A stretch of 64,000 nucleotides of DNA from Thermoanaerobaculia bacterium (GTDB taxonomy: Bacteria > Acidobacteriota > Thermoanaerobaculia > Multivoradales > JAHEKO01). The translations under genes and the position numbers were made by a program. Positions 1,617 through 63,453 of the stretch are shown here, in pieces. Numbering within the stretch: position 1 is the stretch's first letter; each line of letters starts with the position of its first letter. The stretch covers positions 8,055-72,054 of the forward strand of contig JBFGCA010000002.1 of NCBI GenBank assembly GCA_041567315.1, written 5' to 3'. Under the pieces are notes generated by a model. That model was given only the letters and a program-made list of their open reading frames with translations. It had not been told where the DNA came from and did no database searches.

Positions 1617-2431
1617 GGCTCGGTGACCTCCGGCCCGGCGTCCCCGCTCCCGGCGTCCGCGGACTCGGCATCCCCGGGCCCGGCATCCCCGGGCCCGGCG
1701 GCGACCCGGGGCGACGCGGTCTCCCCGCCCGCCACCGCCTCGACCGGCGGCAGCACCTCTTCCAGCTCGACCTCCTCCGCTGCTTCCAGCGGCGTGCCCC
1801 CCGCCTCTCCGCCTTCGGCTGCGGCGCTGGCCGCCGGCAGATAGACCGCGCCCAGCGAGAACTCCACGTTGCCGCCCTCGCGGCGCGCCTCGCTGACCAG
1901 GTTCGGCTCGCGGAAGGCGGGGTGGGCGAAGATCGCGTCGATGAAGGCGAGCAGCGCCTGGTCGCTCTTGGCGACGCCGGCCAGTTCGAGTTGCACCAGC
2001 TCCTCCCGCGGCGCCAGGGCGCTGCCTCGCCGGCTCGCCTGCTTGGGATCGCTGAACCGCGGGTTGAGGCGGCGCAGATGGACCTCGGCCGGAAGCACCT
2101 CGGCCAGGCGGTCGAAGAGCGAGCTCCAGGAGAACGCCCGCTGGGCGATCTTGGTGTTGAGGAAGGCGACGTGGACGTTCTGCTCGGCCAGGTCGAGCCC
2201 GTCGAGCTCCTGCCGCAGCCGCTCCAGCTCGGCGCTCTCCGCCTCGAGCCGCGTCTCGAGCTGGCCGAGCCGCTCGCTCTTGGCGCCCTGGCCCGAGAAG
2301 TACCCCCAGTAGAGCCAGACGTTGGCCGCCAGCAGCGCCACCCCCAGCAGCCACAGCAGGGTGGTCGCCCGGCGCACCGGCCGCGCGTTGACGAACGGAT
2401 CGGCGGCGAGGTCGAGCCGCGCGGGTCTCAC
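1613..2431 (-). CDS. pilN: type IV pilus assembly protein PilN
   Basis: GTG start at 2431 with GGAGGTGG RBS, overlapping the pilM stop (GTGA). DPFVNARPVRRATTLLWLLGVALLAANVWLYW is a typical PilN N-terminus with a single TM. Coiled-coil region and Pro/Ala/Gly-rich C-tail. Confidence 0.8.
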   Translation of the reverse strand: MRPARLDLAADPFVNARPVRRATTLLWLLGVALLAANVWLYWGYFSGQGAKSERLGQLETRLEAESAELERLRQELDGLDLAEQNVHVAFLNTKIAQRAFSWSSLFDRLAEVLPAEVHLRRLNPRFSDPKQASRRGSALAPREELVQLELAGVAKSDQALLAFIDAIFAHPAFREPNLVSEARREGGNVEFSLGAVYLPAASAAAEGGEAGGTPLEAAEEVELEEVLPPVEAVAGGETASPRVAAGPGDAGPGDAESADAGSGDAGPEVTEP

Positions 2432-17615: not shown

Positions 17616-18488
17616 ATGCCCGCCGGCCTGGTGCGCTCGCTGCGGCCCCATCAGTGGGCCAAGAACCTGTTCGTGCTGGCACCGCTGGTCTTCGGCCGCC
17701 AGCTCGACGACGCCGGTGCCCTGACCCGGGCGGCGCTGGCCTTCGCCGCCTTCTGCGCCGCCTCCAGCGCCGTCTATCTGTTCAACGACATCCGCGATCG
17801 CGAGGAGGACCGGCGCCATCCCCACACGCGCCAGCGGCCGCTGGCCGCCGGCACGCTGAGCGTCGGCGTCGCGGCCGCCGCCATCGCCCTGCTGGTAGCC
17901 CTGGCCGCGGCCGGCGGCGCCGCGCTGGGACCGCTCTTCGCGCTGCTGCTGGGCAGCTATCTGCTGCTCAACCTGCTCTACACGCTGGGCCTCAAGCAGG
18001 TGGTGATCCTCGACGTCATGGTGATCAGCATGGGCTTCGTGCTGCGGGTAGTGGCGGGCGCCGTCGCCGCCGAGGTGGCGGTGTCGGCCTGGCTGGTGCT
18101 GTGCACTACGTTTCTGGCGCTGTTTCTGGCCTTCTCCAAGCGCCGCCACGAGCTGCAGGTCATGGCCGACGAAGCGGCCGAAGGCCGGCGGGTCTTGAGC
18201 CACTACAGTCAGTCGTTCCTGGACCAGATGATCAACGTGGTCACCGCCTCCACGGTGGTCAGCTACGCGGTCTACGCCATCTCCCCGGAAACGGTCGAGA
18301 AGTTCCACACCCGCAACCTGATCTACACCATGCCGCTGGTGCTGTTCGGCATCTTCCGCTATCTCTACCTGATCTACCAGCGACCCGCCGAGCGCAACCC
18401 CACCGAGGCGATCCTGCGCGACCTGCCCTTCCTCGCCAACCTCGGGCTGTGGGTGCTGGCGGTGCTGTGGATCGTCTACCGCGGATAG
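17616..18488 (+). CDS. UbiA-family prenyltransferase, decaprenyl-phosphate 5-phosphoribosyltransferase (Rv3806c/DPPR synthase)-like
   Basis: HQWAKNLFVLAPLVFG and YLFNDIRDREEDRRHPHTRQRPLAAG match the hallmark NDxxDxxxD region and N-terminus of Rv3806c-type DPPR synthases. 8-9 TM helices. ATG at 17616. Confidence 0.78.
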   Translation: MPAGLVRSLRPHQWAKNLFVLAPLVFGRQLDDAGALTRAALAFAAFCAASSAVYLFNDIRDREEDRRHPHTRQRPLAAGTLSVGVAAAAIALLVALAAAGGAALGPLFALLLGSYLLLNLLYTLGLKQVVILDVMVISMGFVLRVVAGAVAAEVAVSAWLVLCTTFLALFLAFSKRRHELQVMADEAAEGRRVLSHYSQSFLDQMINVVTASTVVSYAVYAISPETVEKFHTRNLIYTMPLVLFGIFRYLYLIYQRPAERNPTEAILRDLPFLANLGLWVLAVLWIVYRG

Positions 18489-21153: not shown

Positions 21154-22335
21154 ATGCCGACCACGACCCGCGTCGCGCTCGCCCTGTTCGCCACCCTGAC
21201 CTGGACGTCGTCGCTGGCCGCCCGGACCGCGGAGGTCGCGGTCGAGCAGCCGGCCACGACTAGTGCCGGTGACACCAGCGCTGCCGAGACCGCGGCGGCC
21301 CCGCAGGAGCCGCCGCCCGGCGCCCGCTTCGAGGAGCGGGTGGAGGTCCGAGAGGTCCTGCTCGACGTCCTGGTCACCGACCGCCAGGGGCAGATCGTCG
21401 CCGGCCTCGACAAAGACGCCTTCGTGGTCGAGGAGGACGGCGAGGAGCGGGAGCTCACCGGGGCCCGGTTCTACAGCACCCGCTACGGCGAGCTGGGGAC
21501 CCCCGGCGCCGAGGAGGTGCCCGCCAGCCGCTACTTCATCTTCGTGTTCCACGACCAGCGGCTGGGGGTGACCTTCGCCGGCCGCATGGTCCGCCAGCAG
21601 CTCGACGCCGCCCGCCAGAGCCGCGCCTGGCTCGAAGACGGCATGCGGCCCTCGGACTGGGTGGCGGTGGCCAGCTACGACGTCAAGCTCAAGGTCCATC
21701 AGGACTTCACCCAGGACCGCGAGGCACTGGCGCGGGCCATGGACGACGCCGCGCGGAGCGTCCGGCCCGAGCCGCGGCGGCGCCGCGACCGCGAGGCGAT
21801 CCCGGTGGAGCTGCCCTCGCTGCTCCGCCATCTGCCCGACGATTTCGCGCTCCGCAAGCGGACGCCGCGGATGTACGAGGCCCTCCAGCTGCTGGCCGAG
21901 GCCAGCGGTCACATCGTGGGGCGCAAGAACCTGCTGCTGTTCTCGATCGGCTTCGGCGAGATCGACCGCGTCTCCGGCACCGTGCTCCCCGACCGCCGCT
22001 TCTACCCGCCGCTCGAGCGCGCCCTCAACGACAACAACGTGGCGGTCTACCCCATCGATCTCACCCCGACCGGCATCCGGCACCTGCAGAGCGACTTCCT
22101 CAACAAGCTGGCCTACGACACCGGCGGCGTCTACCACCGCAGCTTCGTGAGCTTCATCACCCCCCTGCGCGAGATCTCCGACGACACCAGCGGCTACTAC
22201 CTCCTCAGCTACCGCACCGAGCACCCGGCCGACGAAAGCGGCTTCCAGGAAGTCAAGGTCAAAGTGCAGCAGAAGGGGCTGCGGGTGCGGGCGCGCCGCG
22301 GCTACCTGTACGGGCCGGCGCCGGTGCGGCGCTGA
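21154..22335 (+). CDS. VWA domain protein (VWFA-related Acidobacterial domain family)
   Basis: Signal peptide MPTTTRVALALFATLTWTSSLAA. VWA-like fold (VLLDVLVTDRQGQ..., FIFVFHD, DWVAVASYDVKL) resembling the TIGR03436 architecture. Confidence 0.68.
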   Translation: MPTTTRVALALFATLTWTSSLAARTAEVAVEQPATTSAGDTSAAETAAAPQEPPPGARFEERVEVREVLLDVLVTDRQGQIVAGLDKDAFVVEEDGEERELTGARFYSTRYGELGTPGAEEVPASRYFIFVFHDQRLGVTFAGRMVRQQLDAARQSRAWLEDGMRPSDWVAVASYDVKLKVHQDFTQDREALARAMDDAARSVRPEPRRRRDREAIPVELPSLLRHLPDDFALRKRTPRMYEALQLLAEASGHIVGRKNLLLFSIGFGEIDRVSGTVLPDRRFYPPLERALNDNNVAVYPIDLTPTGIRHLQSDFLNKLAYDTGGVYHRSFVSFITPLREISDDTSGYYLLSYRTEHPADESGFQEVKVKVQQKGLRVRARRGYLYGPAPVRR

Positions 22336-22375
22336 CGGCGCTGAGGTCGGCGGTCCTTGCTGAAGGGTCGGTGGT

Positions 22376-22645
22376 GAGAGCCGACCGGGGCGGGGTGCGC
22401 CTGGGGACGCGGCGGGCCTGACGAACTCCAGAGGGGAGGCCCGCCGCTCCTTTCGCCTTCGCGCCAAACGGACCATAGCCTTCGGCGCTTGCCGCAAGCG
22501 CTCGTCTCAAGGCCACTGTCGAACCCCGCCCCGGCCGGCTCCTGCGCGGTCCGTGGCGACTGGCGCGCCAGGCAAGGGCGACCCCGCGGCCTCTCGACCC
22601 CAGGCGCGCACAGGGTGCGCAGCACTCTTACCTGATCTGCTTGCT
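22376..22645 (+). repeat. copy A of a ~280-350 bp dispersed non-coding repeat (second copy at 62141-62495)
   Basis: Shares with copy B a 5' module gagagccgRccggggcgggg..ggggacgcggcSggcctgacRgacttcagaggggaggccSgccgctcc and the block ccccRccccggccggctcctgcgcggtccgtg. Also shares a 3' cYcTctacctgatYctg module and a cgcaagcgc palindrome core. Confidence 0.8.
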
Positions 22646-22687: not shown

Positions 22688-24457
22688 TCATCGTCCGGTC
22701 AGCAGGCCGGTCACGAGGGCGGCTGAGAGGGCGGCGAGCATCCAAACGAGGCGGGCGCGTGGCGAGAGCGGGCGGGGGGCGATGGGGCCGAGGCGGCGGG
22801 CAAGGCCGGCGGCGAGGAGGGCGAGGAGGACGAGGGCGGCGGCGCCGAGGGCGGCGAGCCACCAGGCGTCGGGGGTGGCGAGGGCGCGCTGGAGGAGGAA
22901 GGAGTTCCTGGGCTCGAAGGAGAGGTAGGCGCGGGGGGGCCAGTGCGCCCAGTCCCAGGCCGCGGCCTGGAGGTAGCGGGCGCGGCCGTAGGTCTCGAGC
23001 AGCCGCAGGTGGAACTCGGTGAAGGGGACGAGGGTGCCGCTAACGGCGAGCAGGGCCGAGGCGGCGACGAGCGCGCGGCCGCCCCAGCGCCAGAGGGGCC
23101 GGGTGGGCGGCGTCTCGAAGAACGGGGCGCAGAGCAGGGCCAGGAGCGGCAGCGCCGGGACCAGGAAGCGCGGGCCCCAGCACCAGCCGCCGTGCCAGTC
23201 GCCCCAGCGGGCGTAGAGCAGGAGCAGGGCGGCCAGCGACCCCCAGGCGAGGAGGGTCGACGGCGGGTGCCGACGCCAGCCGGCGCGGGTGCAGGCGGCG
23301 GCCAGGAGCACGGTCGGGAAGTAGAGCAGCAGACCGCGGCCGGGGCTCGCCAGCAGACCGGCCAGGCCCTCGGTGAGCGGGCTGAACCAGCGGTCCATCT
23401 CGGCCTCGTAGCCGGTCCGCCAGGGACGGCCGAAGCGCGCCCAGTTGGACCAGCCGACCACCGCCAGCATGGCGAGCACCCCGGCGGCGAAGGCCAGGAT
23501 CGGCGGCAGCCCACGGCGCCCCGGCCACCGGCGGGCGACCGACCACAGGAGCACCGCGCCGCCGACCGGCAACAGGACGCCGTGCGCGATCTTGGCCAGG
23601 ACCGCGAGCCCCAGGGCGAGACCGGCCAGGAAGGCCGCCCACCGTGCAGGGCGGGAGACCGCACCCGGCGGGACATCCCCGGGCTGCGGCGCTACGGACT
23701 GCGGCGCGCCGGGCTGGGACGCGACCGGCTGGGTCCGGGCGGAGACGGCCTCGGCAGCGGCCTTCTCGCCGGCCGGCGTCCCAGCTGGCGTGTCGGTAGA
23801 CGGCCTGTCGGTCGACGGGGGCCGCCCGGTGGGGTCCGAATGCGGCGGAGTCGCCACCGCCCGCGCGGCGGCGAGCGCGAAGCCGACCAGCGCCAGGGCG
23901 GCCAGGGGCTCGGCGAAAAAGGTGCGGCCGTAGACCAGGAGCGGCGAGCCAAGCGTCGCCAGCAGCGCCACCGCGGCGGCGGTGCGGCGGCGGTACCCGA
24001 GCTCGAGCGCCAGCAGGAAGAGCAGCGCGCCGGTGGCCGCCACCACTACCGAGTTGGTCAGCGAGAGCGCGAAGAAGCCCCAGGCGTCGGCAGGCCGGTG
24101 CGGGTCGTACCACAGGAACTCCATGCCTTCGAAGACGGCCGTCGAGCGGGCCGGCGCCAGCGCCGCCAGCGCGCGGCCCAGCCACCAGAAGGGCACGCCG
24201 GCCAGCGACTGGCCGACGCCGTATTTGGCGTAGAGCCGGCCGTCGGGGCCGGGGAAGACGAAGCCCGGCGGCAGCCGCGGCTCGTCGACCCAGAGGCCGC
24301 CGTGCTCGGCCAGGGTCTGGGTCACCCGGCCCATCACCACCCCGTCGGGGCTGTGGACGAAGCCGCTGCCGGCGAGCGCCAGCGCCAGGGCGATGAGGGC
24401 GAAGAGCCAGACGGCGGGGCGGCCGCGCGCGGCGAGCGGTGGTCCGGAGGCGCTCAC
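22688..24457 (-). CDS. ArnT/PMT-like GT-C glycosyltransferase (GT39/GT83-like, polyprenyl-phosphate-sugar dependent)
   Basis: 589 aa with at least 11 TM helices. N-terminal loop VVMGRVTQTLAEHGGLWVDEP...YAKYGVGQSLAGVPFWWLG and ...GRTFFAEPLAALAL resemble ArnT/PMT_2 families. Start ATG 24457 overlaps the stop of the upstream GT-C (ATGA). Confidence 0.65.
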   Translation of the reverse strand: MSASGPPLAARGRPAVWLFALIALALALAGSGFVHSPDGVVMGRVTQTLAEHGGLWVDEPRLPPGFVFPGPDGRLYAKYGVGQSLAGVPFWWLGRALAALAPARSTAVFEGMEFLWYDPHRPADAWGFFALSLTNSVVVAATGALLFLLALELGYRRRTAAAVALLATLGSPLLVYGRTFFAEPLAALALVGFALAAARAVATPPHSDPTGRPPSTDRPSTDTPAGTPAGEKAAAEAVSARTQPVASQPGAPQSVAPQPGDVPPGAVSRPARWAAFLAGLALGLAVLAKIAHGVLLPVGGAVLLWSVARRWPGRRGLPPILAFAAGVLAMLAVVGWSNWARFGRPWRTGYEAEMDRWFSPLTEGLAGLLASPGRGLLLYFPTVLLAAACTRAGWRRHPPSTLLAWGSLAALLLLYARWGDWHGGWCWGPRFLVPALPLLALLCAPFFETPPTRPLWRWGGRALVAASALLAVSGTLVPFTEFHLRLLETYGRARYLQAAAWDWAHWPPRAYLSFEPRNSFLLQRALATPDAWWLAALGAAALVLLALLAAGLARRLGPIAPRPLSPRARLVWMLAALSAALVTGLLTGR

Positions 24458-49176: not shown

Positions 49177-49288
49177 CCGAGCATAACGGCATGCACGGCG
49201 CACCCCGGCGGCGGACCGGCGGCGGCGCGACGGTAAGATACGCGCGCCCCGCCGGCCGCCGGTGCGGCCGGGTGCGCGCCCGCCAGCC

Positions 49289-50860
<1,572 letters not shown>

Positions 50861-50945: not shown

Positions 50946-51419
50946 ATGCGGGAAAAAGACAGAGAGCTGAGACGGCGGCGGCAGCGGCGCCGCAAGCGTC
51001 TCAAGCTGCGGCGGCGCGAGGAGCTGACCAAGATCAAGAGCGAGCGGCGGCAGCGGCGGGCGAAGGCGGCCGACGGGGCGGGCGAGCAGGCCACCGCCAA
51101 GAAGACCGCGGCGGCGGCCGAGGAGGCCAAGGCCGAGAAGACCACCGCCAAGAAGGCCGCGGCCAAGAAAACCGCCGCCAAGAAAACCGCCAAGAAGGCG
51201 CCCGCCAAGAAGGCCGCGACCAAGAAGCCCGCCGCCAAGAAGACTGCCGCCAAGAAAACCGCCGCCAAGAAAACCGCCGCCAAGAAAACCGCCGCCAAGA
51301 AAACCGCCGCCAAGAAAACCGCCGCCAAGAAAACCGCCAAGAAGACTGCCGCCAAGAAGACCGCCGCCAAGAAGGCCGCGGCCGAGAAGTCCGCCGAGAC
51401 CGGGACCGCCAGCGAATAG
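50946..51419 (+). CDS. histone H1-like lysine/alanine-rich DNA-binding protein (AAKKT repeats)
   Basis: ATG 50946 with GGAG upstream. Basic N-terminus then about 20 tandem (T)AAKK(T/A) pentapeptide repeats encoded by a 15-bp DNA tandem repeat. Confidence 0.7.
   Translation: MREKDRELRRRRQRRRKRLKLRRREELTKIKSERRQRRAKAADGAGEQATAKKTAAAAEEAKAEKTTAKKAAAKKTAAKKTAKKAPAKKAATKKPAAKKTAAKKTAAKKTAAKKTAAKKTAAKKTAAKKTAKKTAAKKTAAKKAAAEKSAETGTASE
51140..51390 (+). repeat. 15-bp tandem repeat (gccgccaagaaaacc)n inside the H1-like CDS
   Basis: At least 6 perfect and about 10 degenerate consecutive copies of aagaaaaccgccgcc. Confidence 0.85.
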
Positions 51420-51494
51420 CGGACCCCCAGCGCCACCGGCGGTGACGCCCGGATCTCCCGAGATCCTGCGATCCTCGCCCCGGGGCACCCTCCG

Positions 51495-52729
<1,235 letters not shown>

Positions 52730-52748
<19 letters not shown>

Positions 52749-57464: not shown

Positions 57465-57482
57465 TCCGGAGGGAGGCGACCG

Positions 57483-57923
57483 ATGAGGCTCCACGTTCGC
57501 TCGACGCAGAACCAGGGGATCCCGACCGCCTCGATGGCGGACATCGCCTTCCTGCTGATCATCTTCTTCATGGTGACGATCAACTTCGAGGTCGACAAGA
57601 CCCAGGTGCGGCTGCCGAAGACGGCAATCCGTCTCGAGATCCCCAAGAAGGCAGCCTACATCTCGATCACCGAGGCCGGACAGATCCGGGTCTCGAGCGG
57701 CGAGGAGATCAGCGTGCCGGTGCCCGGTCCGGAGGACGTGCTGTCCTTCGCCGCCGGGGTGGTGGCCTCTGATCCCTACAAGCCGTTCGTGCTCAAGGCC
57801 GATCGCACGGTCCCCTACCGCTACGTCGACCGGGTGATCGACGCGCTCAAACAGGCCAAGGCCGAGGTCATCTACCTGCTCTCGGAGCAGGAGACGATCG
57901 AGGCCCAGGCGGCCGGAGGTTAG
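57483..57923 (+). CDS. exbD: biopolymer transport protein ExbD/TolR
   Basis: [20 protein letters not shown] is the typical ExbD N-terminal TM. 146 aa. Confidence 0.85.
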   Translation: MRLHVRSTQNQGIPTASMADIAFLLIIFFMVTINFEVDKTQVRLPKTAIRLEIPKKAAYISITEAGQIRVSSGEEISVPVPGPEDVLSFAAGVVASDPYKPFVLKADRTVPYRYVDRVIDALKQAKAEVIYLLSEQETIEAQAAGG

Positions 57924-57927
57924 CCCC

Positions 57928-58362
57928 ATGAAGCTCAAGCGCGGCACCGTCAGCGACGAGATCCCGACCGCCTCGATGGCGGACATCGCCTTCCTGCTGA
58001 TCATCTACTTCATGGTCACCACCACCTTCGCCGCCACCCGCGGCCTCGACTTCTCGCTGCCGCAGGAGGAGGACAGCCCGCTGGTCGACAAGGAAGAGTC
58101 GGTGCTCATCGAGATCCAGCCGGGCGGCGTGCTGGTGGTCGACGGCAAGACGATGCAGCTCGACGGCATCCTCGACTACCTGGAGCCCAAGCTCGAGCGC
58201 AACCCGATGAAGCCGGTGATCATCCGGCCGGCCGAGAACGCCGAGTACGGCTTCATGGTGGACGTCTTCGACGAGCTCCGGCAGTCGCCCGAGAAGAAGG
58301 GCTTCGAGATCAAGAACGTCTCGATCCCGACCCAACGGGAAATCGACATGTTCTGGTACTAG
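57928..58362 (+). CDS. exbD: biopolymer transport protein ExbD/TolR (second copy)
   Basis: [20 protein letters not shown]; paralogous to the preceding gene. 144 aa. Confidence 0.85.
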
Positions 58363-60403: not shown

Positions 60404-61299
60404 CGCTCGCGCCGCAGCGAGACCACCGCTCCCAGCAGACCGGCGCTGCCGCCCAGGGCCAGCAGCGCCAGCAGTTGCTGCCACGACAGGAAGCGGCCGA
60501 CCAGCACGGCCCCGAAGAGGCTGGTGGACCCGGGGGCGCTGAGCGCGGCGAAGCCGACCCACAGACCAAGCAGGGCCAGCGCGCCGCCGGCCAGGCCCTG
60601 CAGCAGACCCTCCAGATAGAACGGGCCGCGCACGTAGAGCTCGGTGGCGCCCACCATCCGCATCACGGCGATCTCCTCGCGGTAGAGGTAGGCGGTCAGG
60701 CGGACGACGCTGGCGATGGTGAAGACCGCCGCTCCGAGCAGCGCCAGCCCGACCATCAGACCGATCCCCTTGAGCAGACCCACCAGGGTCTCGAGCTGCT
60801 GGAGCCAGTCGCGGTCGTCGTCGACCATCGTCACTCCCGGCTGCCGGCGCAGCTCGGCCAGCCACGAGGCCAGGCGCTCGTCCGCCACCCGCTCGGGCTG
60901 GAAGGCGATCTCGAGCGACGGCGGCAGCGGCTCCTCGCGCCAGCCCTCGACCAGCTCGGCGACGCTGGGGAAGATCTCCCGAAAGCGCTCCCGGGCCCGC
61001 GCCGCGCTCACCTCCTCGACCTGCTCGACCCAGGGCTTCGAGCGCAGCCCCCGGCCCAGCGCCTGGCGCTCGGCGGCGCTCTGCGCGGGATCGAGATAGA
61101 CCACGATCCGGGCCTCGCCTCGCCACTCGGCCACCACCCGCGACAGGTTCTCGATGAGCAGCAGGAAGGTCCCGCCGATAAAGACGCTGGCGGCGATGGT
61201 GACCACCGCCAGCAGGCTGACCCGCCAGCTGCGCCCCAGGCTGACCGCCGCCTCGCGCAGAAAGTAGGCGACGACCCGGAAGACCGCCAGCCGTCTCAC
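60400..61299 (-). CDS. ftsX: cell division permease FtsX
   Basis: GTG start at 61299 overlapping the ftsE stop (GTGA). VRRLAVFRVVAYFLREAAVSL N-terminus, four TM helices and a periplasmic domain. Confidence 0.85.
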   Translation of the reverse strand: MRRLAVFRVVAYFLREAAVSLGRSWRVSLLAVVTIAASVFIGGTFLLLIENLSRVVAEWRGEARIVVYLDPAQSAAERQALGRGLRSKPWVEQVEEVSAARARERFREIFPSVAELVEGWREEPLPPSLEIAFQPERVADERLASWLAELRRQPGVTMVDDDRDWLQQLETLVGLLKGIGLMVGLALLGAAVFTIASVVRLTAYLYREEIAVMRMVGATELYVRGPFYLEGLLQGLAGGALALLGLWVGFAALSAPGSTSLFGAVLVGRFLSWQQLLALLALGGSAGLLGAVVSLRRER

Positions 61300-62072
61300 C
61301 GCGGCGCCGTCGCCGGGACCGGAGCCGGCTCGCGCTCGTCCGCCGGCGCCCGTTGTCCCGGCTTCAGCCAGCGGTCGTCGACCAGCCGCCCGCGGTCGAG
61401 CATCAGCACCCTGCCGCCCACGGTCCGCAGCAGCTCGGGCTCGTGGGTGGCGACCAGCACGGTGGTGCCCTTGCGGTGGATCTCCACGAACAACCGCAGG
61501 ATCTCCCACGAGAGCTGCGGGTCCAGGTTGCCGGTGGGCTCGTCGGCGATCAGGATCTCGGGGTCGCCGATCAGCGCCCGGGCGATCGCCACCCGCTGCT
61601 GCTCACCGCCCGAGAGCTCGCCCGGGAAGGCGCTCATCCGGTGCGCCAGCTCGACCCGGCGGAGCGTCCGGTAGGCCATCTCCTTCTGCTCGCGCAGCGG
61701 CATGCCGAGGATCCGCGGCAGGTAGCCGACGTTCTCGAACACGGTCTTGCGCGGGATCAGCCGGAAGTTCTGGAAGACGACGCCGATCGAGCGTCTCAGA
61801 TAGGGGATCTTCTTGGCCGGCAGCGACGCGACGTTGCGCCCGTTGACCAGGATCTGCCCGCTGGTCGGCGTCAGCTCGCGGTAGATGAGCTTCAACAGGG
61901 TCGACTTGCCGGCCCCGCTCGGCCCGGTCAGAAACGCGAACTCCCCCGGCGCCAGCTCGAAGCTCACGTCCTCGAGCGCAGTCCGCCCCGGAAACCGCTT
62001 GCTGACCCGCAGAAAGTGGATCACGCGGTGGCGGGCCTTGGTAGCTGGAAGCACTGTGGCATGAATGGGCAA
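61296..62072 (-). CDS. ftsE: cell division ATP-binding protein FtsE
   Basis: Walker A GPSGAGKST, ABC signature LSGGEQQRVAIARAL, Walker B ILIADEPTGNLD. Listed start is TTG 62072; a GTG at 62024 (VIHFLRVSKRF) is a likely alternative. Confidence 0.93.
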   Translation of the reverse strand: MPIHATVLPATKARHRVIHFLRVSKRFPGRTALEDVSFELAPGEFAFLTGPSGAGKSTLLKLIYRELTPTSGQILVNGRNVASLPAKKIPYLRRSIGVVFQNFRLIPRKTVFENVGYLPRILGMPLREQKEMAYRTLRRVELAHRMSAFPGELSGGEQQRVAIARALIGDPEILIADEPTGNLDPQLSWEILRLFVEIHRKGTTVLVATHEPELLRTVGGRVLMLDRGRLVDDRWLKPGQRAPADEREPAPVPATAPR

Positions 62073-62140
62073 TTTTAGACCAAGGAGTGGTGCCCTCTCG
62101 AGCAGGCCTTGGGCGGTGGGTCAGCTTCAACGGGCGGGGC

Positions 62141-62495
62141 GAGAGCCGGCCGGGGCGGGGCATGCCAGGGGACGCGGCCGGCCTGACAGACTTCAGAGGG
62201 GAGGCCGGCCGCTCCTCACCGCTGCGCGCTGCCCGGTCCGTAGACTTCGAGGATTGTCGCAAGCGCTTGCGGCGAGGCCCCTGTCGAGCCCCACCCCGGC
62301 CGGCTCCTGCGCGGTCCGTGAGGGCTGACCCACCGCGCGGACCGCTGTGCGTCGAGCTGACCATCGTCAAGAGCAGCTAAGCGCCAAAAGCCTTGGTGGC
62401 GACCACGCGGGCCCGCGCGGAGGTGTTGGTGGTGGAACAAGTGGGGCGACGCCCGGTCTGAGGAGACAGCCCACCCTCTCTACCTGATTCTGGGC
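62141..62495 (+). repeat. copy B of the dispersed non-coding repeat (copy A at 22376-22645)
   Basis: Same module order and orientation as copy A. The GC hairpin (62174-62212) differs from copy A by a compensatory G-C to C-G swap. Contains about 80 bp extra relative to A. Confidence 0.8.
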
Positions 62496-62757: not shown

Positions 62758-63453
62758 ATGCCGTCAGACAAGACCAACTGCCCCCGGCAGGTCAACGGGT
62801 GGTGGGTCTGGAGCGCGGGCGACGGGGCGGTGGAGGTCTCGTTCGTGGGGCGCGGGCCGAGCGGGGGGCGGCGCGACGCGCTGGGAGCCGTGGCGGATGG
62901 CGAGCTGGGGCTCGCCTGGCTGCGGCAGGTGCACTCGGCGCGGGTGGTGAGCGCGGAGAGCGGGGCGTGCGGCGAGGGGGACGCGCTGGTGACGCGGCAG
63001 GCGGGACTGGCTCTGAGCGTCGCGACGGCCGACTGCGTGCCGGTGGTGGTGGCGGGCGGCGATCGGGTGGCGGCGGTCCATGCGGGATGGCGCGGCATCG
63101 CCGAGGGCGTCGTGGCGGCGGCGCTCCACCGGCTGGGTGGCGATCCGGGGACGCTCACGGCATGGATCGGGCCGGCGATCGGCCCTTGCTGCTACGAGGT
63201 CGGCGGCGACGTCGCCGAGCGGGTCGCCGGCGCCAGTCATGCGGCAGTGGTCAAAGCCCGGGCCACCGGCCGCCCTCACCTGGATCTGCCGGCGGCGGCG
63301 ACCCACCAGCTCGCTGCGGGCGGGATCGAGCGGGTGCAGCACATCGAGGCCTGCACCCGCTGCTCCACCGGAGAGCTGTGGAGCTATCGCCGCGAGGGCC
63401 GGGGTGCAGGACGGAACTACACCTTCGCGTGGCTGCGGCCGGGCACGACCTGA
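62758..63453 (+). CDS. pgeF: YfiH/PgeF family purine nucleoside phosphorylase / peptidoglycan editing factor
   Basis: Conserved His/Cys motifs: VHAGWRG, GPCCYEVG, CTRCS. 231 aa. Confidence 0.85.
   Translation: MPSDKTNCPRQVNGWWVWSAGDGAVEVSFVGRGPSGGRRDALGAVADGELGLAWLRQVHSARVVSAESGACGEGDALVTRQAGLALSVATADCVPVVVAGGDRVAAVHAGWRGIAEGVVAAALHRLGGDPGTLTAWIGPAIGPCCYEVGGDVAERVAGASHAAVVKARATGRPHLDLPAAATHQLAAGGIERVQHIEACTRCSTGELWSYRREGRGAGRNYTFAWLRPGTT

Follow-up and report, generated by a model that had tools for sequence, protein, structure and literature searches.

Two intergenic palindromes and a third copy of the same element

The analysed DNA, a stretch of 64,000 nt (hereafter the window) with a G+C content of 70-77%, contains two imperfect palindromes, A and B. 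Copy A lies between the stops of two convergent genes, one coding for a VWA-like protein (21154-22335, + strand) and the other for a membrane protein (22688-24457, - strand). Copy B is located between the divergent starts of ftsE (61296-62072, - strand) and a Cu-oxidase_4/PgeF gene (62758-63453, + strand). Both copies are intergenic and have the same orientation (+ strand), forming direct repeats spaced by 39,765 nt. The repeat search of the window listed one long two-copy family (D2), in which 22373-22569 (the core of A) and 62138-62334 (the core of B) form an ungapped alignment of 197 nt with 79% identical positions; a MAFFT alignment of the two copies likewise had no gap across the core. 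The first-pass annotation had described this pair as a non-random, intergenic and non-coding repeat in a single orientation, with no indels in the aligned blocks, and all these statements were confirmed. The extents that it proposed (22376-22645 and 62141-62495) were correct for the cores, but not for the tails. Significant similarity between A and B stops at approximately 22569/62334, beyond which it is no better than in shuffled sequence, and the flanks of the two copies are unrelated to each other; past these points, the tails share only a motif of 12-17 nt (CTCTTACCTGAT). The palindromic structure reaches from approximately 22343 to 22593 in A and from approximately 62108 to 62340 in B.

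With up to three mismatches allowed, three of four conserved blocks matched the window nowhere but at A and B. For two of them, the chance expectation was 0.00 matches; for the third, the 20-mer GGGGACGCGGCSGGCCTGAC, 0.24 matches were expected and two were obtained in 3 of 100 shuffles. The fourth block, which belongs to the left arm, also matched both copies at their right arms, in the reverse sense, as well as one further site with three mismatches (15332-15351). A covariance model run on the window with its filters off gave 193 bits for B and 174 bits for A. The reverse-strand self-matches of the two copies reached 39 and 27 bits, and the best score elsewhere was 18.5 bits.

A third copy, C, came to light when A and B were translated in all six frames and the resulting profile was compared with 5.8 billion proteins. 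Exactly one ORF traversing a copy, P0121, was recovered in this search. Copy C occupies L022:1746-1941 on the - strand of a different contig, in the same MAGs as the window (GCA_041609795.1 and GCA_041615875.1), and lies antisense within the operon junction of an RnfD-like gene and a DUF2330 gene. Exact matches to the window proteins were present in these two MAGs and in the Logan assemblies of runs SRR292573xx-SRR292574xx. The segment 62135-62307 of B is 95% identical to C, and the numbers of identical positions among the 169 compared were 161 for B and C, 134 for A and B and 138 for A and C. No further or degenerate copy was detected by nhmmer in the window and 27 loci, or by the covariance model with filters off in the window. 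The count of three copies refers to approximately 90 kb of the DNA of this organism. The named homologues of the A-flanking gene belonged to Acidobacteriota/Thermoanaerobaculia; the best homologues of the VWA-like gene were only 61-63% identical and were not syntenic, and those found are paralogues.

The GC content at the third codon position (GC3) of the flanking genes was 0.89-0.96, whereas every frame over A and B gave approximately 0.7-0.8. The conservation between A and B was equal over all six reading frames (46-54%). Since there was no GC3 asymmetry and the six frames were equally conserved, A and B are non-coding, and a protein-coding reading was rejected on the same grounds. The single frame open in both B and C had no match among 1.84 billion protein representatives. 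No sigma-70-like promoter, intrinsic terminator or T-tract was tied to A, B or C on either strand; the sole promoter-like site near B (62101-62072, - strand) is situated between B and ftsE. An attempt to assign the strand from the asymmetry of G-U and A-C mismatches was uninformative, because these were split approximately 3:2. None of the genes adjoining A, B and C matched a transposase or reverse-transcriptase Pfam family.

Several other repeated sequences were observed in the window. The relatively AT-rich motif CTCTTACCTGAT(TCTGG) occurs at 22625-22640 (+), 62476-62493 (+) and 14905-14922 (-), and possibly at L022:1743-1755. It is positioned approximately 75-170 nt downstream of A and B, outside the palindrome, and its occurrence at 14905-14922 is not accompanied by the element and overlaps the TGA stop of a 902-aa gene (14909-17617, - strand). 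These sites share exact 12- and 13-mers, against approximately 6e-4 chance matches of an exact 12-mer in the window by our own estimate. A tandem array of 18 copies of the 15-nt unit GCCAAGAAGACCGCC (83% matches) extends over 51132-51396, between the high-GC3 ORFs 49187-50860 and 51420-52748. Two adjacent + strand paralogues (57465-57923 and 57838-58362), which we take from their common N-terminal sequence to be of the ExbD/TolR type, share a 71-nt stretch of 93% identity (57518-57588 and 57960-58030). ARAGORN called a tRNA-Ser(CGA) at 1687-1771 (-), overlapping a 15-nt tandem repeat at 1632-1700; this is probably a false call, and the Rfam scan at gathering thresholds found no tRNA anywhere in the window.

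Anatomy and predicted folding

Each copy is an imperfect palindrome of 225-250 nt with three layers: an outer stem that is specific to the copy, an inner stem that is conserved and, inside these, two hairpins. The predicted fold consists of a long closing stem around a three-way junction, whose branches are the hairpin P2 and a second, more variable hairpin region. The predicted folding energy of the core is about -110 to -135 kcal/mol, with very stable GC hairpins on both strands. The arms end in GAGCCGG.../...CCGGCTC and GGCGG.../...CCGC.

The inner inverted repeat is 18 bp long, encloses approximately 128 nt and is conserved in A, B and C, with one mismatch each in A and B. Its left arm, GAGCCGRCCGGGGCGGGG, lies at 22378-22395 in A and 62143-62160 in B, and its right arm, CCCCRCCCCGGCCGGCTC, at 22524-22541 and 62289-62306, respectively. 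The arms of A read GAGCCGACCGGGGCGGGG and CCCCGCCCCGGCCGGCTC (I4 in the inverted-repeat search), and the right arm of B reads CCCCACCCCGGCCGGCTC. The inverted repeat reported in the first-pass annotation is therefore real and its spacing was nearly correct, but it had been cut short to 11 nt. Both the inter-copy homology and the pairing run approximately 30 nt past the inner repeat on each side, which makes this repeat sub-terminal.

Hairpin P2 spans 22409-22447 in A and 62174-62212 in B and has the sequence GCGGC[G/C]GGCC(T) ... (A)GGCC[C/G]GCCGC. It comprises 11 bp and a 17-nt loop rather than the 10 bp and 19 nt first assigned to it. The exchange of G22414-C22442 in A for C62179-G62207 in B, pointed out from the start, retains the pair, and at this position (pair 42/70) two copies carry CG and one carries GC. 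The P2 loop is identical between A and B at 16 of 19 positions. A 27-nt block, CCCCGGCCGGCTCCTGCGCGGTCCGTG, which lies partly beyond the stem, is also kept between these two copies.

The strength of the folds differed between copies. The arms of B at 62113-62176 and 62273-62336 (64 nt, 77% complementary) form the longest inverted repeat of the window (I1), and the extended folds of B (62108-62340) and C reached -176 kcal/mol (z = -8.5) and -168 kcal/mol (z = -7.1), respectively. The folds of B and C were better than those of shuffled sequence (z = -6.2 to -8.5), while the fold of A was not (z = -1.2 to -1.9; z = -1.2 for the extended fold over 22343-22593). The outer stem was evaluated from the 40-nt flanks outside the inner repeat, whose duplex energies were compared between own and other copies and with shuffles. 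The left flank of B paired with its own right flank at -56.8 kcal/mol, compared with -44.0 for the right flank of A and -38.3 for that of C, and no shuffle of 500 did as well. For C, the corresponding values were -39.9 kcal/mol with its own flank, -31.5 with A and -35.7 with B (3 of 500 shuffles), and for A they were -34.2 kcal/mol with its own flank, -35.4 with B and -24.9 with C (177 of 500 shuffles). Cognate duplexes were thus stronger than non-cognate ones for B and C, while A paired slightly better with B and its outer stem was no better than shuffles. In B, the arms of the outer stem, GGGCGGTGGGTCAGC and GCTGACCCACCGCGC, were placed at 62111-62125 and 62324-62338 by the extended fold and the flank duplex. 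The outer stems of B and C are homologous and differ in 6 of 15 pairs; as read from the sequences, 4 of the 15 are altered on both sides and are still Watson-Crick pairs. Within the core, 94.4% of cells in A, B and C were paired and four pairs had undergone compensatory change, a level matched by 11 of 500 shuffles and by 0-1 slid controls. Eight of the ten unpaired core cells belong to A. All these pairing statistics are based on three sequences and have little power.

The ends of the element vary in composition. A module of 12-14 nt, GCGGTCCGTGGCGA, follows the inner repeat on its right side in A (22546-22559) and B, whereas in C it is on the left side and abuts the arm. Degenerate forms of it are also present on the left side in A (22365-22377) and B, and the orientation is always direct. 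In C, the left-end module is duplicated approximately 65 nt further outward. The different placement of the module between copies and its duplication in C indicate that the element is a mosaic. A local repeat, AAACTGATYCACAAMCC, surrounds C at L022:1728-1743, 1953-1968 and 2007-2025, with two direct occurrences and one inverted; these repeats make up the outer stem of C and its duplicated left-end module.

The third locus and the distribution of the element

In the two nearest relatives (76% and 74% aa identity), the RnfD-like gene either shares 4 nt (ATGA) with the DUF2330 gene or ends 12 nt short of it, and in several homologues the two are fused. In the source locus, by contrast, approximately 470 nt of non-coding-type sequence separates the RnfD-like and DUF2330 coding parts. 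Coding-type GC3 ends near L022:1570 and the DUF2330 gene starts at 2044, with C between them on the opposite strand. Because the flanking genes overlap or abut in the nearest relatives, C is an insertion relative to them, and the locus gained approximately 470 nt including the element. An empty site was not seen within the species, as every recovered population contig carries the element identically.

The RnfD-like ORF P0121 (L022:740-2047) encodes 435 aa, compared with 275-310 aa in its orthologues; the best 120 homologues measure 275-350 aa or are fused to DUF2330. It exceeds all homologues by approximately 130-160 codons because the ORF continues through the antisense strand of C, remaining open as far as the ATGA, the ancestral point of overlap with DUF2330. 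By our own calculation (not a tool output), an open, frame-preserving insert has a chance of approximately 0.06 at this composition. The read-through resembles that of Rickettsia palindromic elements (RPEs) and may be due to chance or may maintain translational coupling.

Searches beyond the source organism did not reveal the element. The exact 22-mer CCGGCCGGCTCCTGCGCGGTCC, taken from the best-conserved block, had one match among 185,579 species genomes (GTDB), in Streptomyces, which was dismissed as chance since its flanks lacked similarity. The exact 20-mer GGCCGGCTCCTGCGCGGTCC had nine matches in JGI metagenomes, also attributed to chance, with the similarity confined to the 20-mer. There were no matches for the P2 block in IMG/VR, distant blastn of plasmids and phages yielded nothing, and the element was not found in approximately 47 kb of related Thermoanaerobaculia loci. 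The Rfam scan gave no family match in the window at gathering score and none accepted even at E<=10, the best sub-threshold matches reaching at most 16.7 bits against gathering scores of 33-75. The full-text literature contained no description that we could find of a palindromic interspersed repeat family in Acidobacteriota, class Thermoanaerobaculia.

Breaks in short-read assemblies were observed inside the element, which fits a multi-copy repeat. B and C share the exact runs 62189-62231 and 62255-62307, and their last common 31-mer starts at 62277. Five Logan contigs begin at 62278-62288, just past that 31-mer, and one MAG contig begins at 62196, within the other of the two runs, and has many errors at that end. 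The first 113 nt of this contig, L006 (window 62196-62308), show 13 differences from the window, all of which lie within the element and seven of which are T->G, while there is one mismatch in the next ~1700 nt; the pattern looks like sequencing error at low coverage, at a contig end in a GC-rich hairpin, and not like a variant copy. The Logan contig L003 terminates inside A, at window position 22514. No 31-mer of copy A recurs in B, in C or elsewhere in the window, and this break hints at an unseen A-like copy elsewhere or at a drop in coverage.

Origin of the family and alternative explanations

The three copies probably constitute a lineage-specific family of non-autonomous palindromic interspersed repeats of Thermoanaerobaculia (Acidobacteriota), comparable to MITEs, REPINs and ERICs. 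A small, parasitic mobile element is favoured because a copy so close to B is found at an unrelated locus, where it is inserted relative to the relatives, because the sequence was not recovered from any of the other collections searched and lacks promoters and terminators, and because one copy is decaying; the gene context and orientation also differ across A, B and C, which points the same way. The copies are of different ages. Copy A is old and decaying, and B and C are recent, as judged from the closer similarity of B and C to each other than of A to either and from the concentration of unpaired cells in A. We infer that a transposase encoded elsewhere in the genome acts in trans to copy the element to new sites. 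Such an enzyme might be of the DDE type and recognise the conserved inner inverted repeats, or it might be an HUH/Y1 enzyme of the IS200/IS605-RAYT type that recognises the folded single-stranded hairpin. The second option would fit slightly better, since target-site duplications are lacking and the arms have undergone compensatory change. Pairing would then be kept because the hairpin is the copying substrate, or by arm-templated repair, and an RNA product would not be needed.

Certain observations speak against mobility. Only three copies were seen in the approximately 90 kb, the conserved inverted repeat is not outermost in the inter-copy homology, and the three-way junction with its well-conserved P2 loop would equally suit a functional RNA. 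A systematic scan of 90-nt flanks identified no direct repeats abutting the inner or outer boundary of A, B or C and no convincing target-site duplication; only scattered 5-8-mers were present, which by our own estimate, rather than by a shuffle test, is the chance level for GC-rich sequence. Of the three identities that had been suggested at the outset, an sRNA, a cis element or a MITE, the evidence leans towards the last, in the sense of a mobile or dispersed palindromic repeat, but the missing duplications and the sub-terminal repeat set it apart from a typical MITE.

MITEs are typically AT-rich, whereas the G+C content of the element is 74-78%. They are defined as non-coding elements of <500 bp with TIRs of ~4-30 bp and flanking direct repeats, at least in young copies (PMC10969869). 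Our element shares with MITEs such as QMITE2 and the Neisseria Correia elements a length of <500 bp, the non-coding and mostly intergenic character and the dispersal of copies, here over three loci with unrelated flanks, with an insertion documented at C and, as a further likeness, one copy (C) traversed by a host ORF. QMITE2 of Coxiella has TIRs of 23-29 bp, a core of 113-145 bp and a folding energy of about -113 (PMC10969869); the inverted repeats of ~18 bp, the ~128-nt core and the comparably stable predicted fold of the transcript or ssDNA are similar. In contrast to MITEs, the element has no target-site duplication and carries a copy-specific outer stem beyond its sub-terminal repeat. It has no sequence similarity to any described MITE. 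REPINs occur in tens to hundreds of copies, with a single RAYT gene flanked by REPs, compared with the three copies seen here. These REP doublets are about 70-110 nt long and are mobilised by RAYT/TnpA-REP Y1 transposases (PMC3116915, PMC8266576), and the 5' end of a REP is tagged with GTAG or CGTC (PMC3733652). The element resembles them in forming one long imperfect hairpin with compensatory arm changes, in lacking target-site duplications, in its intergenic location and in being apparently restricted to a single lineage. However, it is two to three times longer, has a three-way junction instead of a simple spacer, and its arm ends lack GTAG/CGTC, GTAG being confined to the apical part of B and C. 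ERICs and RPEs measure 100-250 bp, are imperfectly palindromic and lie in intergenic or transcribed regions. The element is likewise an imperfect palindrome, and C sits in an open ORF as RPEs and intragenic ERICs do, but it comes from a different phylum and has no sequence similarity to either, and the read-through of C could be a chance event. It implies no conserved peptide, with all six frames conserved equally.

It is less probable, and in our opinion unlikely, that the copies are paralogous genes for structured sRNAs of ~200-250 nt with a long closing stem and a three-way junction. Such RNAs would be independently transcribed or released by processing from the transcripts of neighbours, and their P2 loop or 3' block would act on a target. 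The strong folds of B and C, the four compensatory core pairs together with those of the outer stem, and the preservation of the P2 loop and of CCCCGGCCGGCTCCTGCGCGGTCCGTG between A and B are consistent with such genes. Nevertheless, promoter-like and terminator-like signals are absent at every copy on both strands, the ratio of wobble to A-C mismatches (about 3 to 2) reveals no strand bias, and A folds at the level of shuffled sequence with 8 broken pairs. Copy C lies antisense in an operon junction with an ORF running through it, the sequence was not conserved outside this species in the searches made and has no Rfam match, and three sequences provide little statistical power. The first-pass annotation had taken the G-C to C-G swap in P2 as a sign of selection on structure. 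Pairing is indeed preserved, but covariation alone is no argument for an RNA, and compensatory changes do not discriminate RNA from DNA: across the hairpin arms of REPINs they are common, and the hairpin is thought to be a replicative substrate (PMC3116915).

We regard it as improbable that the palindrome, whatever its origin, has been recruited by the host as a bidirectional barrier for transcription or mRNA stability or as a site for a nucleoid or regulatory protein. REP, ERIC and Correia elements have documented roles of this type (PMC10969869), the GC hairpins are very stable on both strands, and the location of A, exactly between two convergent genes, is one at which a stable hairpin could stop read-through both ways. 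On the other hand, a terminator would be unneeded between the divergent promoters around B and harmful between the translationally coupled genes around C, and there is no T-tract. There is also only a slim chance that the element is a structured RNA of ~230 nt, not described before and restricted to this lineage, in which a long stem closes a three-way junction and the conserved P2 loop and 27-nt 3' block are functional. If so, it could be a guide or scaffold for some partner or an RNA promoting its own spread, and C, in frame within a coding tail, would be an Acidobacteriota analogue of the Rickettsia palindromic elements.

The remaining readings, a cis-acting leader or riboswitch, part of an established RNA-templated system (retron msr/msd, DGR template repeat, IS110 bridge RNA or IscB/TnpB guide RNA) and an origin of A and B as what is left of the two ends of a ~40-kb segmental duplication or island, are very improbable and largely refuted. 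The cis element considered initially is made unlikely by the position of A at convergent 3' ends with no downstream gene on either strand, of B at divergent starts and of C antisense in an operon junction. Inverted repeats around a structured core superficially recall the a1/a2 repeats of retrons, but the neighbours (VWA-like, membrane protein, FtsE, PgeF, RnfD-like and DUF2330) include no reverse transcriptase, recombinase, IscB or TnpB, the A/B mismatches are of all types and not adenine-specific as in DGRs, and Rfam, in which HEARO and other families are present, gave no match. The direct repeats 39,765 nt apart do not delimit a segmental duplication, as their flanks are unrelated, a third copy exists elsewhere and the interval holds ordinary housekeeping genes of uniform GC; A and B as att-like ends of a 40-kb island were rejected on the third copy, on the genes and GC of the interval and on their identity of only 79%.

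The non-autonomous palindromic repeat that we favour opens no new mechanism and settles no long-standing question. It serves as a caution that compensatory changes in a repeated hairpin do not, on their own, signify a functional RNA. For this population, it has practical consequences, as the element breaks short-read assemblies at predictable points and gene callers extend ORFs through it, so that P0121 bears ~160 spurious or novel C-terminal residues. If the interpretation is correct, A, B and C would add a new sequence family, not assigned to any named one, to the palindromic interspersed repeats of bacteria.
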